This document shows positions 2,953-12,987 of a stretch of DNA of 16,541 nucleotides, in pieces. Every line of letters begins with the position of its first letter. The stretch's first letter is position 1. Source of the stretch: Candidatus Iainarchaeum sp. (GTDB lineage Archaea; Iainarchaeota; Iainarchaeia; Iainarchaeales; 0-14-0-20-34-12); the NCBI GenBank assembly GCA_030649345.1, contig JAUSKK010000012.1, positions 1-16,541 on the forward strand, written 5' to 3'. The notes beneath the pieces were generated by a model that did no database searches, was not told the DNA's origin, and saw only the letters and a program-made list of their open reading frames with translations. The translations under genes and the position numbers were made by a program.

Positions 2953-3046
2953 CTATATTTTTTGCACTGGTTTCGTTGACCCATGTCAGAACCTTAGGTT
3001 CCGACACCTCCTGAGATCAACTCATATTTTTTGCACTGGCTTTGTT
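2953..3046. repeat. Direct duplication of the rad50 3' terminus (2953-2977 vs 3022-3046, offset 69 nt) bracketing a 44-nt hairpin-containing insert (2978-3021)
   Basis: ATATTTTTTGCACTGG is identical in both copies. Read on the minus strand, both copies encode TKPVQKI plus a stop (TAG distal, TGA proximal). The insert carries the hairpin TGTCAGAACC/GGTTCCGACA (2984-2993 / 2997-3006, one mismatch) and, on the minus strand, GGAGGTG (3005-3011). Confidence 0.8.
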
Positions 3047-9518: not shown

Positions 9519-9523
9519 GATTT

Positions 9524-9659
9524 TTATTTCAAACTTTTTTTTATTTCTTTTTCCAGTCTTTCAACCGCGGTGGCGGTTGGTAGCACGTGGTGCTTTCGCT
9601 TTGCTACAGCACCACTTTCTTTATTTTAATGTTTTTTTTATTTCTTTTTCCAGTCTTTC
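9524..9659 (+). mobile_element. GC-rich two-hairpin element (58-nt core, 9563-9620) flanked by a 39-nt duplication of the taw3 3' end (9524-9562 vs 9621-9659)
   Basis: Stem 1 is CAACCGC (9562-9568) / GCGGTTG (9573-9579). The shared 19-mer lies at 9575-9593. Stem 2 is GTGGTGCT (9587-9594) / AGCACCAC (9608-9615). The distal repeat encodes ERLEKEIKKSLK plus TAA, against the real C-terminus ERLEKEIKKTLK plus TAA (36 of 39 nt identical). The distal copy starts 5 nt after the ATPase stop codon. Confidence 0.65.
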
Positions 9660-10280: not shown

Positions 10281-11057
10281 TTGTTTAAATATTGGGTATT
10301 ATTTTTATTTTGCTTAATTTTAGCCGCAAGTACTTTAGCTACTGTTGAAATGGTTGAACCCAAGCCCAGCAATGTTTTAGCCAATACTACAATTACTTTG
10401 GGGTCAGCTCAGCCTGGAGAATCTGTTAAATTGGTTTTAACCCGCGGTTTAGGCAGAAACAAATGGCAAGATGTACGCATTGATGCACTGTCTTTGCCTT
10501 CAGGTTGGACGTACGAAAAACAAATTCAAGATCAATCGTTTATTGTTTGGATTAAAGTTCCAAGTACAGCTAACTTGGATTCATATAATTTGAAAGTAAT
10601 TGTTTCTTCTGAACTTTTAACTGAATCTTTTAATGCGTTGCTTTTAGTTAAAGACGATTTATTGACTGTGTCCATGACCGACTTATTGCAATCTACTCAA
10701 GTTGGAGAATCTGGAACATTCAAAGTTTCCTTCCAAAACAATAGTATTGCTGCGCATAATTTAAAAATTTCCAGTGATTTACCCAGCCAATGGTTTGCTG
10801 AACAAACCTTAGAAATTTTACCCGGAGAATTTAAACAAATTGAATTATCGGTAACCACCCGAAGTTATGGAACTCGAGATTTTTCATTCACTCTTGAATC
10901 TACTTTGAATAATTCAAAAAAAGTATTTCCTGCAACTTTAACTATCCATCCAACTTTGAAAAGCAAATTTTCTGCAGTATTTTACGGCTTTCCTTTTCTG
11001 TCTTTGAGTTTGCTGCCGTATTATTTGATCGATGGCTTTTTGTCTTTGGTTCAGTAA
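10281..11057 (+). CDS. Predicted secreted or membrane-anchored protein (N-terminal signal or anchor, beta-rich ectodomain, C-terminal TM helix)
   Basis: TTG start. The hydrophobic N-terminus is FKYWVLFLFCLILAASTLA. The body is Ser/Thr/Asn-rich and repetitive, with beta-sandwich-like character. The hydrophobic C-terminus is FYGFPFLSLSLLPYYLIDGFLSLV. I recognise no family confidently. Confidence 0.6.
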   Translation: MFKYWVLFLFCLILAASTLATVEMVEPKPSNVLANTTITLGSAQPGESVKLVLTRGLGRNKWQDVRIDALSLPSGWTYEKQIQDQSFIVWIKVPSTANLDSYNLKVIVSSELLTESFNALLLVKDDLLTVSMTDLLQSTQVGESGTFKVSFQNNSIAAHNLKISSDLPSQWFAEQTLEILPGEFKQIELSVTTRSYGTRDFSFTLESTLNNSKKVFPATLTIHPTLKSKFSAVFYGFPFLSLSLLPYYLIDGFLSLVQ

Positions 11058-11071
11058 AATAATTTAATTAA

Positions 11072-11206
11072 TTAGCCCAATTTTTTTCCAACACCAAACC
11101 GCGGGGCCATGCCCCTCAGTTTTAGGTTAATCCTGATCCCTGATTGCAGTTCTGTTGAACTGCAGTACTTTGAAATTTGTTTTTTTAGTCTAATTTTTTT
11201 CCAACA
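11072..11206 (+). mobile_element. Diverged member of the hairpin element family (91-nt core, 11094-11184) flanked by a 22-nt duplication of the elp3 3' end (11072-11093 vs 11185-11206)
   Basis: The left terminus CAAACCGCGGGGC compares with CAACCGCGGTGGC in the taw3 copy. The right terminus CTGCAGTACTTT compares with CAGCACCACTTT. Internal hairpins are GGGGC/GCCCC (11103-11107 / 11111-11115) and ATTGCAGTTC/GAACTGCAGT (11143-11152 / 11157-11166). The distal repeat encodes VGKKLG plus TAA, against the real VGKKLD plus TAA. Confidence 0.55.
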
Positions 11207-12987
11207 TATATTCCGTCTTTTTGATAACCTAACTTGTAATAATATTCTCTTGCACCTACACCTGCAATGACTAAAAGTTTTTTGCAGTCCAATTCTTCGC
11301 TGGCAATCTTTTCAGCTGTCTCTAGCAATTTTTTCCCCCATCCTTTGTGCTGCATGACTTGCTTTCCTAATAATTGAGTATCCAAAGGAACTGTGGTTCC
11401 AAATACATGGAGTTCTCGAATGCCTGCTGTTTTTGGAGTAATTTCCGGCCGGAATGGTTGTGACGGCAATCGCAAGCGTATGAATCCAAACAATAAATTG
11501 TTTTGTGTGTTTTCTAAAGAAATGAAATATTCTAGTCCTTGGCTGGAGTCATATTTTTCAATTATAATTTCTGCATTCTCTAATCCTGATTCAATTCCTT
11601 GCTTGTAAGAAGAAATTCCTGCTTCTCTACAGCGAATGCATTGGCAAACAATTTTTTTGTTTTTCAATTCTTCTTCCACCAATTGTCTTAAATTGTTTTT
11701 ATTAATTCCAGTGGACGCGAGTTTAACTGGAATGTCTCTTTGCACCCGATGAACTCTGCAGTATTTTTGAATATATTTTTTTCCTTCAGCAATAATTTCT
11801 GCAGCTGCTTCTGTTTCTAAAGGTGTGAATTCTCCGCGTTCCCATAATTTCTGTAAAGGAGTTCCAGGCATGACCATGCAAGGGTAAATTTTCAATCCAT
11901 CCGGCCGATAATTTGGATTGGCAAATAATTCTTGAAACATTTCAATATCTTGTGTTCGATTGCTTAATGGCTGGCCAGGCATAATGTGAAAAACAGTTTT
12001 CAAAAAACTATCCTTGGATAATTGCACAGCTTCCATGGTGTCTTGGATTGTATGGCCACGGTTGGTGTATTTTAATATTTTATCTTGCAGGCTTTGAACT
12101 CCAATTTCGACTCGCGTACAACCCAATTTTAGCATTTGATCTAAGTGTACTTGTTTGCACCAGTCTGGTTTGGTTTCAATGCATAAAGTAACACAACGAA
12201 TCTTCGCATGTTCATTTCGTTGATGTTCGTGTTCTAGATTTAAAATTCCTTTTTCGCTTAATAGTTTGTTTTTAATTTCTGTTCTAACTTTGGGATCGTG
12301 TTCATTTAAAGGCAAATTAAAATATTCTGAAAATTTTTCGAAGTCAATTTCTTGGGTTTCTGAATTGTAAAATTTTTCTCCAAAATCATTCATGGCTTTA
12401 AACGAACCCGTAATAAATTCTTCTTGATATCCTTTCGGGAAACTGGGGAATGTTCCGCCCATGACAATGAGTTCTACTTTGTCGGCTGTATGGCCTGTGG
12501 ATACGTATTGCGTTAATCGATTAATGGTTTGAAGATAGGCATCATAGTCATTCAAGATTGCGCGCATGCTAGCAGGTTCGTTTCCAGTATAACTTTTAGG
12601 AATGTCTCCAAAAAAACTATTTAAGCCACCTGGACAATAAATACAAGTTCCATGTTGGCAATTGATAGGCTTGGTCATAATGGCAACTGGCGTAACTCCG
12701 CTGAGAGTTCGCACTGGCTTAATGCCCAATATTTTGCTGAGTTGTTTAAAGTTTTTTCCAGTATATGCTAAAATATCAGGGTCTGAAGGCATTTCTGTTA
12801 AGTTTAATTCATGGCATAAATCCATTTTGAGTCTGTTAAGTTGTCGTTTGTTTTGAATTTGCCCAGAACCAATAGCTTCGACAATTGTCTGTGCAATTCT
12901 TCGTATTTTGTCTTGTTTCTCAACCGCGGTCTCGGTTGGTAGCACGTGGTGCTTAACAGCACCACTGTCTTTGTTTTGTTTCTGCAT
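11185..12987 (-). CDS. elp3: Elp3-family tRNA uridine(34) modification enzyme (radical SAM + GNAT acetyltransferase)
   Basis: 600 aa. It has the radical-SAM cysteine cluster CQHGTCIYCPGG, a conserved TIM-like core (VELIVMGGTF, RVEIGVQS) and a C-terminal GNAT region (QHKGWGKKLLETAEKIA). Residues about 5-25 are encoded by the inserted element at 12906-12983. Confidence 0.92.
   Translation of the reverse strand: MQKQNKDSGAVKHHVLPTETAVEKQDKIRRIAQTIVEAIGSGQIQNKRQLNRLKMDLCHELNLTEMPSDPDILAYTGKNFKQLSKILGIKPVRTLSGVTPVAIMTKPINCQHGTCIYCPGGLNSFFGDIPKSYTGNEPASMRAILNDYDAYLQTINRLTQYVSTGHTADKVELIVMGGTFPSFPKGYQEEFITGSFKAMNDFGEKFYNSETQEIDFEKFSEYFNLPLNEHDPKVRTEIKNKLLSEKGILNLEHEHQRNEHAKIRCVTLCIETKPDWCKQVHLDQMLKLGCTRVEIGVQSLQDKILKYTNRGHTIQDTMEAVQLSKDSFLKTVFHIMPGQPLSNRTQDIEMFQELFANPNYRPDGLKIYPCMVMPGTPLQKLWERGEFTPLETEAAAEIIAEGKKYIQKYCRVHRVQRDIPVKLASTGINKNNLRQLVEEELKNKKIVCQCIRCREAGISSYKQGIESGLENAEIIIEKYDSSQGLEYFISLENTQNNLLFGFIRLRLPSQPFRPEITPKTAGIRELHVFGTTVPLDTQLLGKQVMQHKGWGKKLLETAEKIASEELDCKKLLVIAGVGAREYYYKLGYQKDGIYVGKKLD
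12906..12983 (+). mobile_element. Compact member (48-nt core, 12921-12968) of the hairpin element family inserted in frame in the elp3 5' coding region, flanked by a 15-nt direct repeat (12906-12920 vs 12969-12983)
   Basis: Stem 1 is CAACCG (12921-12926) / CGGTTG (12933-12938). The shared 19-mer lies at 12934-12952. Stem 2 is GTGGTGCT (12946-12953) / AGCACCAC (12958-12965) with loop TAAC. The repeat offset is 63 nt, or 21 codons. The reading frame stays open across it (..MQKQ-NKDSGAVKHHVLPTETAVEKQ-DKIRR..). Confidence 0.65.

Follow-up and report, generated by a model that had tools for sequence, protein, structure and literature searches.

Behind the elp3 gene of an archaeal genome lies a 91-nt insert that consists of a private 44-nt spacer and a single gene-less structured repeat of about 60 nt in the elp3 sense, bracketed by two copies of the elp3 3' end. 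The window, that is, the whole stretch of DNA that was analysed, is 16.5 kb long and constitutes the entire contig C36 of its own genome, G000 (1.32 Mb, 34.5% G+C, 55 contigs; 94.6% complete), which bears archaeal traits such as long tRNA introns and a 16S-tRNA-Ala-23S operon. The insert is a regular member of a second repeat family of this genome, defined here as family B, and not a decayed copy of the first, family A. We consider the arrival of a replacement gene end to be the best explanation of the elp3 insert, with a confidence somewhat better than even. Judging from a comparison of gene ends, the duplicated elp3 end is most likely a displaced resident allele that lies beside its imported replacement, rather than a target-site duplication. 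The analysis newly defines family B, with regard to structure, strand and range, and adds a rule of layout with one precise and one variable end as well as a statistical case for the second copies of gene ends, termed ghosts below, as displaced functional alleles.

The gene with the duplicated end, elp3 (600 aa), occupies 11185-12987 on the minus strand and matches Pfam PF16199, PF04055 and PF23613. Its real 3' end, the copy in use, encodes VGKKLD* (11185-11206, minus strand; TTAGTCTAATTTTTTTCCAACA), and a ghost that encodes VGKKLG* and has kept its stop codon lies at 11072-11093 (minus strand; TTAGCCCAATTTTTTTCCAACA). As reported in the initial annotation, these two 22-nt copies are equal at 20 positions and bracket 91 nt (11094-11184). 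This repeat is not due to chance, its score being reached by 0/3000 shuffles and by 8/4000 random genomic sites with the same geometry. One of the two differences is synonymous (TTA/TTG) and the other exchanges Asp for Gly; both VGKKLG* and VGKKLD* fit the C-terminus, ...GxYMxKKL, of homologues that carry the name Elp3 in the source databases. The first 7 nt of the repeat pair are identical, and the ghost touches the last base of the terminal helix of the repeat, leaving a gap of 0 nt between core and ghost. Since 14 nt separate the ghost stop from the stop of a convergent gene, the original intergenic gap would have been 14 nt, and the earlier proposal of an insertion into a tight convergent junction is upheld.

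The family B core of the window copy (11094-11148) lies on the minus strand, which is the elp3-sense strand, and was delimited with a covariance model (R1), an nhmmer profile and an alignment with 11 other genomic copies. Helices P1 and P2 together span 11094-11126 on this strand and are based on pair counts over 12 and 40 copies. P1 pairs 11094-11101 with 11117-11122 and 11125-11126, leaving a 2-nt bulge at 11123-11124, and reads CC-TA-AAACTG/CGGTTTGG. P2 pairs 11103-11107 with 11111-11115 around a CAT loop; it is the GC hairpin GGGGC/GCCCC that had been noted near the left end, and it is indeed present at 11103-11115. The conserved unpaired tract occupies 11127-11140 of the minus strand (sense strand GGGATCAGGATTAA; family consensus RGGGGRTCAGGA); in alignment A1, columns G11, T13, G16, G17 and A18 are invariant and C14 is nearly so. 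The 5' purine tract of the window copy is shortened: the first half of AAGGARGGGG is missing, only GGGATCAGGA is retained, and a private hairpin lies upstream.

The private spacer fills the 44 nt between the real elp3 stop and the core (11141-11184, minus strand), and no second copy of it was found in genome G000 or in metagenome contigs; a search for a donor with the spacer/core junction gave 0 matches in metagenome contigs. Its hairpin, 11143-11152/11157-11166, appears in folds of both strands. The initial annotation had described a perfect hairpin here that stood in for the family A stem GTGGTGCT/AGCACCAC as a compensatory second stem. The hairpin exists (11143-11166), with 8 perfect pairs, a G·T and an A-T pair, and so is not strictly perfect; it is private to the spacer of this copy and is no compensatory homologue of the family A stem. 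Nor is a second stem a feature of the family, because in several B copies the repeat resumes 0-2 nt after the core, leaving no room for one. The 91-nt insert carries no open reading frame (ORF) and has the ends CCAAACCGCGG... and ...GAAATTTGTTTTT, the right side of which varies between copies.

The window insert (11072-11206) lacks the family A block GGTTGGTAGCACGTGGTGC as well as the GTGGTGCT/AGCACCAC stem, and the 19-mer shared by family A copies is absent, as had been observed. A search of the genome with the insert matched its left two-thirds at three other places, and a scan for AACCGCGG then exposed family B; about 19 of the 29 AACCGCGG sites in G000 fall within family A or B elements. 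An nhmmer profile yielded 15 family B copies in G000, 12 short and 3 long, with an E of 3e-11 for the window copy. What had been taken for an interior that had turned over is in fact the conserved core of family B, to which R1 assigns 60.6 bits (E about 1e-13, model positions 1-62). The resemblance of the termini to those of other copies held for the left end, where CAAMCCGCGG occurs at 6 genome sites against 0.6 expected. It failed for the right end: GCASYACTTT occurs 22 times against about 9 expected, and only the two copies in the window lie in elements, the other 20 being in unrelated sequence.

On the gene-sense strand, the family B core begins with an unpaired purine tract, AAGGARGGGGRUCAGGA, followed by P1 (CY-nn-RAACUG paired with CGGUUYRG), which encloses the GC helix P2; the long copies have two AT-rich hairpins nested inside this GC helix. 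Across the 12 short genomic copies from which R1 was built, 97.9% of pair cells are standard and 5/12 pairs have changed on both sides. The pair score of these copies was unmatched in 500 shuffles, and a shift of the partner by one column reduced pairing to 55-59%. When 40 copies from at least 8 genomes were considered, 95.4% of cells were paired, 7/12 pairs showed compensatory change, and a U·G pair was present in 38/40. Because this U·G would be a C·A mismatch on the opposite strand, the fold is that of the gene-sense strand, whether in RNA or in single-stranded DNA. Rfam returned no family at its gathering threshold, and noise only at a permissive E-value threshold (5).

The R1 core was detected in 10/151 genomes sampled from the order (9/150 besides G000), representing at least seven families, and was not found in two genomes of G000's own family. 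A degenerate core pattern matched at least 120 metagenome contigs, from sources including lake sediment and groundwater, among others. Further copies of the variant thus exist within G000 and beyond, so that the initial annotation is not refuted by its own condition that there be none anywhere. In two metagenome samples, the B core forms the 3' part of a composite repeat that is rich in GC, measures about 345 nt and contains several other hairpins. This composite occurs three times in tandem in L144 (Ga0078972_1136014), and in many Ga0272448 contigs (L082-L151) it is often located at contig ends and faces inward, suggesting that it is present in high copy number and disrupts the assembly.

The copies follow a common layout with a precise end, a variable end and a co-oriented target. 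On the AACCGCGG side, 10 genomic B copies have 0-1 nt between the end of the repeat and the core, and the opposite boundary of the same copies lies 0-38 nt from the core (107 nt in one long copy). Recognisable ghosts start 0-6 nt past the last base of the terminal helix. Repeat lengths range from 16 to 53 nt in G000 and reach 73 nt in metagenomes; the inserts measure 55-215 nt for all 15 G000 copies, with the 60-nt core at the ghost edge. The real gene is invariably on the variable side and is co-oriented with the model strand, as elp3 is in the window. Upstream of each of the 10 G000 copies beside protein genes is a co-oriented ORF with its stop at -4 to +41 nt relative to the core; in two copies the insert itself provides the stop codon. 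The other family B copies of G000 flank tRNAs or sit in the rRNA operon. The initial annotation's mobile family with recognised ends accordingly stands as a multi-copy, insertion-like family with one precise AAC..GTT terminus, its other end being a variable spacer.

The same layout recurs in other genomes, with a 52-nt repeat in G027 and an 18-nt repeat in G023, and in G090 and G048 the 3' ends of tRNAs are duplicated from the T-loop onward. In metagenomes, a ghost begins at most 6 nt after the core in 25/104 copies, versus 2/104 in a shifted control, and about 9 of these 25 ghosts are tRNA ends. The repeats cease to resemble each other at positions between about -7 and +7 nt relative to the stop codon. 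Core and ghost share at most 1-2 nt at their joint in most pairs, for which reason microhomology was rejected as the basis of joining; in one family A copy GGTTGA is shared. Ligation to the 3' ends of mature RNAs was likewise rejected, as tRNA junctions carry no CCA and spacer ends no U-tract, and so was the idea that spacers are flanking sequence transduced from other copies, the spacer of the window copy being without another genomic match.

Some copies are associated with stable RNA genes. A B copy at G000:C11:45156-45217 (L051 1501-1562) lies between the 16S 3' end and tRNA-Ala(UGC), touching the first base of the tRNA, and G023 has a B copy between tRNA-Ala and 23S instead. The purine tract of the C11 copy is able to pair with the 16S 3' tail, with an energy of -25.6 kcal/mol against a mean of -12.4 for shuffled sequence. 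A Shine-Dalgarno-like pairing of the purine tract with the 16S tail was rejected as a general property, being strong only in the C11 and C2 copies and elsewhere no better than in shuffled sequence. At G000:C20:25812-26085, the tRNA-Lys 'intron' of 200 nt contains an element similar to family A and, after it, sequence resembling a C/D-box small RNA (GTGATGA ... CTGA ... TGATGA ... CTGA). Just downstream of this tRNA, a long B copy is accompanied by a ghost of the tRNA's 3' end that measures 16 nt. ARAGORN, with introns allowed, found only about 25 tRNAs in G000, many with hairpin-rich introns of 35-200 nt, and missed the rRNA-operon tRNA-Ala(UGC) that Rfam detects; tRNA counts that depend on the tool will be unreliable in this lineage.

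The differences between real and ghost ends carry a synonymous signature. In the C17 pair both copies encode MALGKRSMENYIFEELI*, with four codon differences, all synonymous and including Ser TCC/AGC, and with the stops TAG and TAA; the three differences of the C39 pair are also all synonymous. In a pair from G027 (L062), belonging to a ribosomal-protein-like gene, both ends read MGFKKFD and differ by 3-4 silent changes, the stop being TAG in one and TGA in the other. When every ORF end of G000 was scanned without bias, about 18 credible pairs emerged, with 22 synonymous and 5 non-synonymous codon differences after hand curation. With the metagenome pairs pooled in, 30/39 codon differences are synonymous and 9 non-synonymous, an excess with P = 3e-6 relative to the approximately 40% synonymous changes expected for a neutrally drifting ghost. 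Because the differences are mainly synonymous, real and ghost ends have both evolved as working gene ends, and hence in different genomes.

The simplest way to read these observations is the following course of events, in which the real elp3 end (11185-11206) is probably the imported replacement. A unit made up of a replacement elp3 end, the spacer and the core would enter from a diverged relative and be anchored on one side through homology within elp3. On the other side, the base of the terminal helix would be joined to a point that lies 22 nt, or perhaps 33 nt, inside or past the end of the resident gene, so that the resident elp3 end would persist as the ghost. To make the joint, a small circle might recombine in a site- or structure-specific manner, or a linear fragment protected by a hairpin might undergo end-joining. 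Such an entry would fix the orientation, because a replacement end must continue the gene, and would make the spacers unrelated, because each would be the donor's own downstream sequence. It would also set the repeat boundary at the stop codon, because only coding sequence would be alignable between donor and recipient, and it would account for the preference for tRNA 3' halves.

Several points weigh against this replacement model. The elp3 pair alone, with one synonymous and one non-synonymous difference, cannot decide, and many repeat pairs are identical, a state that plain target duplication fits equally well. Neither an empty site nor a donor was found, the nearest Elp3 being 59% identical in a library of 5.8 billion clustered proteins. 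Among 40 related genomes, the nearest Elp3 reaches at most 55% identity over the C-terminal 199 aa; these genomes and the protein library contained no close strain for an empty-site comparison at elp3, and no family B element was found near elp3 in 29 relatives. The upstream genes of 24 scorable copies with a co-oriented ORF (from 46 copies in 8 genomes) share no homologous pair, and so give no direct sign of repeated targeting of one gene across genomes. The first 7 nt of the repeats differ in several pairs; since they are not always identical, the overlap of a classical integrase at the repeat edge is disfavoured. No recombinase is linked to the element, the genomes G016 and G023, which are B-positive and rich in elements, yielded no integrase of the C38/C2 type described below, and the model offers no route by which an element would gain a new gene end.

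Candidate enzymes were sought in G000. Besides XerA, the genome holds three tyrosine recombinases of about 415 aa with a C-terminal CxxC...CxxC zinc ribbon (C38:4586-5839, C2:3826-5061 and C44:5973-7226). Integrases of the C38/C2 type are encoded in 75/151 genomes of the order; an association of integrases with element-bearing genomes was considered and rejected, none being found. The C2 integrase lies 54 nt from tRNA-Asn, and an integrated element at this tRNA was rejected as a full-length relative, the C2 contig holding no tRNA-Asn ghost. No gene for a reverse transcriptase (RT), Y1, TnpB, DDE_Tnp_1, rve or IS110-type transposase, or Cas1 was detected in G000; PF01609, PF00665, PF02371, PF01797 and PF07282 were without a match there, in a survey that did not extend to every insertion sequence family.

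Plain transposition offers a different account of the repeats. Here, a trans-acting enzyme would make variable staggered cuts of 16-50 nt, the spacer and core would be inserted, and fill-in would duplicate the target; in a compact genome, the survivors would be those that keep a whole gene end. The many identical pairs agree with this, as does the original gap of 14 nt, which would force any tolerated insertion to lie near the stop codon. There is also a precedent in the insertion of restriction-modification (RM) genes with long variable duplications and no other mobile element, including 46-bp repeats over gene 3' ends (PMC2853133). However, diverged pairs that are 77% synonymous and have kept their stops are not what neutral ghost decay should leave (P = 3e-6), the unrelated spacers would leave the element without a defined second end, and strict co-orientation with the upstream gene is unpredicted. 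Nor was an RT, Y1, TnpB, DDE_Tnp_1, rve, IS110-type or Cas1 gene found in the 95%-complete genome. We regard transposition of this kind as unlikely. Retroposition, in which the element RNA would be copied into DNA at a nick by target priming, could yield a 3' end that is precise, a 5' side that varies or is truncated, and duplications of variable length; with no PF00078 reverse transcriptase in G000 (94.6% complete), tRNA junctions that lack CCA and a synonymous signature that it does not explain, it is hardly credible.

Two further accounts turn on the nature of the core itself. It might be mainly a selected functional RNA module, for instance a signal for 3'-end protection or processing or a pre-rRNA/tRNA flank, with the duplications as a side effect. 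Covariation and the conserved U·G on the transcribed strand, co-orientation with the upstream gene, the copies in rRNA operon spacers and touching tRNA ends, and the strong pairing of the C11 rRNA-spacer copy with the 16S 3' tail (-25.6 kcal/mol) are in keeping with such a role. It leaves unexplained the ghosts that touch the helix base, and the distribution is patchy (10/151 genomes, not including the two same-family genomes searched), most copies show 16S complementarity no better than shuffled sequence, and Rfam has no match. As the main account it is quite improbable; a role as an RNA does not compete with mobility, and the two could go together. Alternatively, each copy could be the scar of a larger integrated virus or plasmid that has lost its interior, leaving attL-attR as in a cis-mobilizable element (CIME), with the core as an arm beside attP. 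The order of gene with replacement end, insert and ghost, together with tRNA ghosts that run from the T-loop to the 3' end, is the classical signature of an integrase, and G000 encodes three of about 415 aa. Yet every one of the 15 G000 copies would have to have shrunk to 55-215 nt with an equal 60-nt core beside the ghost, no core-bearing element of full length was seen, there is no association with an integrase family, and the C2 integrase has no tRNA-Asn ghost beside it within its contig. Such scars are, in our estimation, very improbable.

Family B shares its layout with other inserts of the same genome. Family A numbers at least 17 copies in G000, which typically begin CAACCGGGGTTCCGGTTGG, and has only the terminal helix (AACYG/CGGTT) in common with family B: CAACCGG/CCGGTTG in A and RAACYG/CGGTTY in B. 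Families A and C (CGGAACCTAAGGTTCTGA) follow the same precise-end layout as family B. In G000, most credible gene-end-duplicating inserts finish beside the ghost in a small AACC..GGTT-type hairpin; palindromes of this type number 109 genome-wide against a median of 45 for similar arms, and were rejected as a genome-wide signature, being enriched yet not the top class. It is conceivable, although we hold this only tentatively and put it below even, that the three families represent one undescribed class of non-autonomous archaeal mobile elements. These would be short hairpin modules with an AAC..GTT-type terminal helix that spread between genomes with a homologous replacement end of a housekeeping gene or tRNA, are anchored through that homology and are joined at the helix base by a host or other structure-specific activity, without a dedicated recombinase gene. 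They would amount to the patching of gene ends in the manner of integrase elements, scaled down to about 60 nt.

Other copies in the window illustrate these families. A family A copy behind the TYW3 gene (9563-9619, minus strand; repeat D6) shows the same layout, its ghost at 9523-9562 adjoining the AACCG end and the real end occupying 9620-9659. A further family A copy lies within the 5' end of elp3 (12922-12968, minus strand; repeat D4), where the insert and a duplicated start region are translated in frame. Elp3 consequently begins MQKQNKDSGAVKHHVLPTETAV ahead of the N-terminus of its homologues (MxxKxxQF..II.AIE.G), an extension of 22 aa with no alternative start codon downstream. The third insert type, family C (ATCAGGAGGTRTC ... 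CGGAACCTAAGGTTCTGA), was seen between the real end and ghost of rad50 (window about 2975-3020) and in G000:C49 near 36514; the rad50 pair shows synonymous differences only.

The convergent neighbour of elp3 is a 258-aa gene on the plus strand (10281-11057, stop at 11055-11057) with weak Ig-like Pfam matches only. On the same strand, the private hairpin is followed by TTTGAAATTTGTTTTTTT (11143-11184), a T-run of the spacer spanning 11174-11184. From their sequence, these two could be a termination signal for the 258-aa gene, which would now read through the ghost and the core; a simple terminator scan of the window marked the P2 hairpin only.

DPANN archaea have tiny, tightly packed genomes, and to our knowledge little is known of how foreign DNA enters them. 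The elements mark at least a dozen ends of housekeeping genes and tRNAs in a single 1.3-Mb genome. If they arrive with replacement ends, each would record a recombination event between diverged lineages, and the elements would serve as compact markers of gene flow. The junction, placed precisely where a conserved helix has its base, offers a concrete substrate for an enzyme search. Ghosts and in-frame inserts also matter for annotation, as they shift the calls of gene ends and gene starts, the 600-aa Elp3 being one example.

Small dispersed repeats and folded sites are known from several other systems, and no account of archaeal elements that move in this manner was found in the literature. 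MITEs (miniature inverted-repeat transposable elements) and palindromic repeats, such as the Rickettsia palindromic elements, repetitive extragenic palindromes (REP) and bacterial interspersed mosaic elements (BIME), and Correia elements, are likewise short, gene-less, structured and multi-copy in compact genomes, and Rickettsia palindromic elements insert in frame into host genes, as family A does in elp3. Unlike MITE-type elements, family B has one variable boundary and lacks terminal inverted repeats, a fixed short duplication and a cognate transposase. The attC sites of integrons, including archaeal integrons (Ghaly 2022, PMC9668308), resemble family B as folded sites of about 60 nt behind a co-oriented ORF with AAC...GTT arms in the terminal helix. 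They differ in that family B copies are dispersed singletons behind housekeeping genes and tRNAs rather than cassette arrays, and in that attC recombination duplicates no gene ends. An attC reading was rejected, in an assessment made without an IntI-specific model: AAC/GTT is invariant and paired, but the 3' arm is GTTYRG and not GTTRRRY, a 2-nt bulge is present, and there are no arrays.

Allomyces mitochondria contain double-hairpin elements, and mitochondrial mobile ORFs give rise to hybrid genes, as reportedly described by Paquin, Laforest and Lang in 1994 and 2000. The former are small dispersed hairpins whose fold is kept by compensatory changes, and in the latter a foreign C-terminal segment displaces the resident one, which stays downstream. 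These systems are organellar, unlike family B, and an endonuclease ORF is present in the hybrid-gene cases. Insertion that duplicates a long stretch of the target is said to have been reported by Nobusato in 2000, and was described by Furuta in 2010. It shares with family B the variable direct repeats of tens of bp, often over a gene 3' end, and the lack of a transposase (PMC2853133). There, however, kilobase RM gene units without shared sequence move in bacteria, whereas here a 60-nt core defines one junction.

The closest parallels in arrangement come from integrative elements that enter the 3' end of a gene and supply a replacement for it, among them IMEs and ICEs (explained below) at tRNA and ribosomal-protein genes. 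Prophage e14 lies between icd and the C-terminal pseudogene icdC, and its excision leads to synonymous changes in icd (PMC13626634). Integrative and mobilizable elements (IMEs) integrate in the 3' ends of tRNA and housekeeping genes such that one direct repeat holds the gene end, and CIMEs are their gene-less remains (PMC5704250). Compared with e14, IMEs, ICEs (integrative and conjugative elements) and CIMEs, family B inserts are 55-215 nt long, gene-less and without a linked integrase, occur in many copies per genome, each at its own gene with its own end, and share a 60-nt folded core without an invariant overlap at the repeat edge. In common with these elements, they show the order of gene with new end, insert and displaced old end, a gene that stays intact because its end is contained in one direct repeat, two end copies that differ mostly synonymously, and tRNAs whose duplication runs from T-loop to 3' end. 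Should replacement ends indeed come with them, family B elements would be the smallest known case of 'bring your own gene end', a strategy otherwise documented for kilobase-sized integrase elements only.

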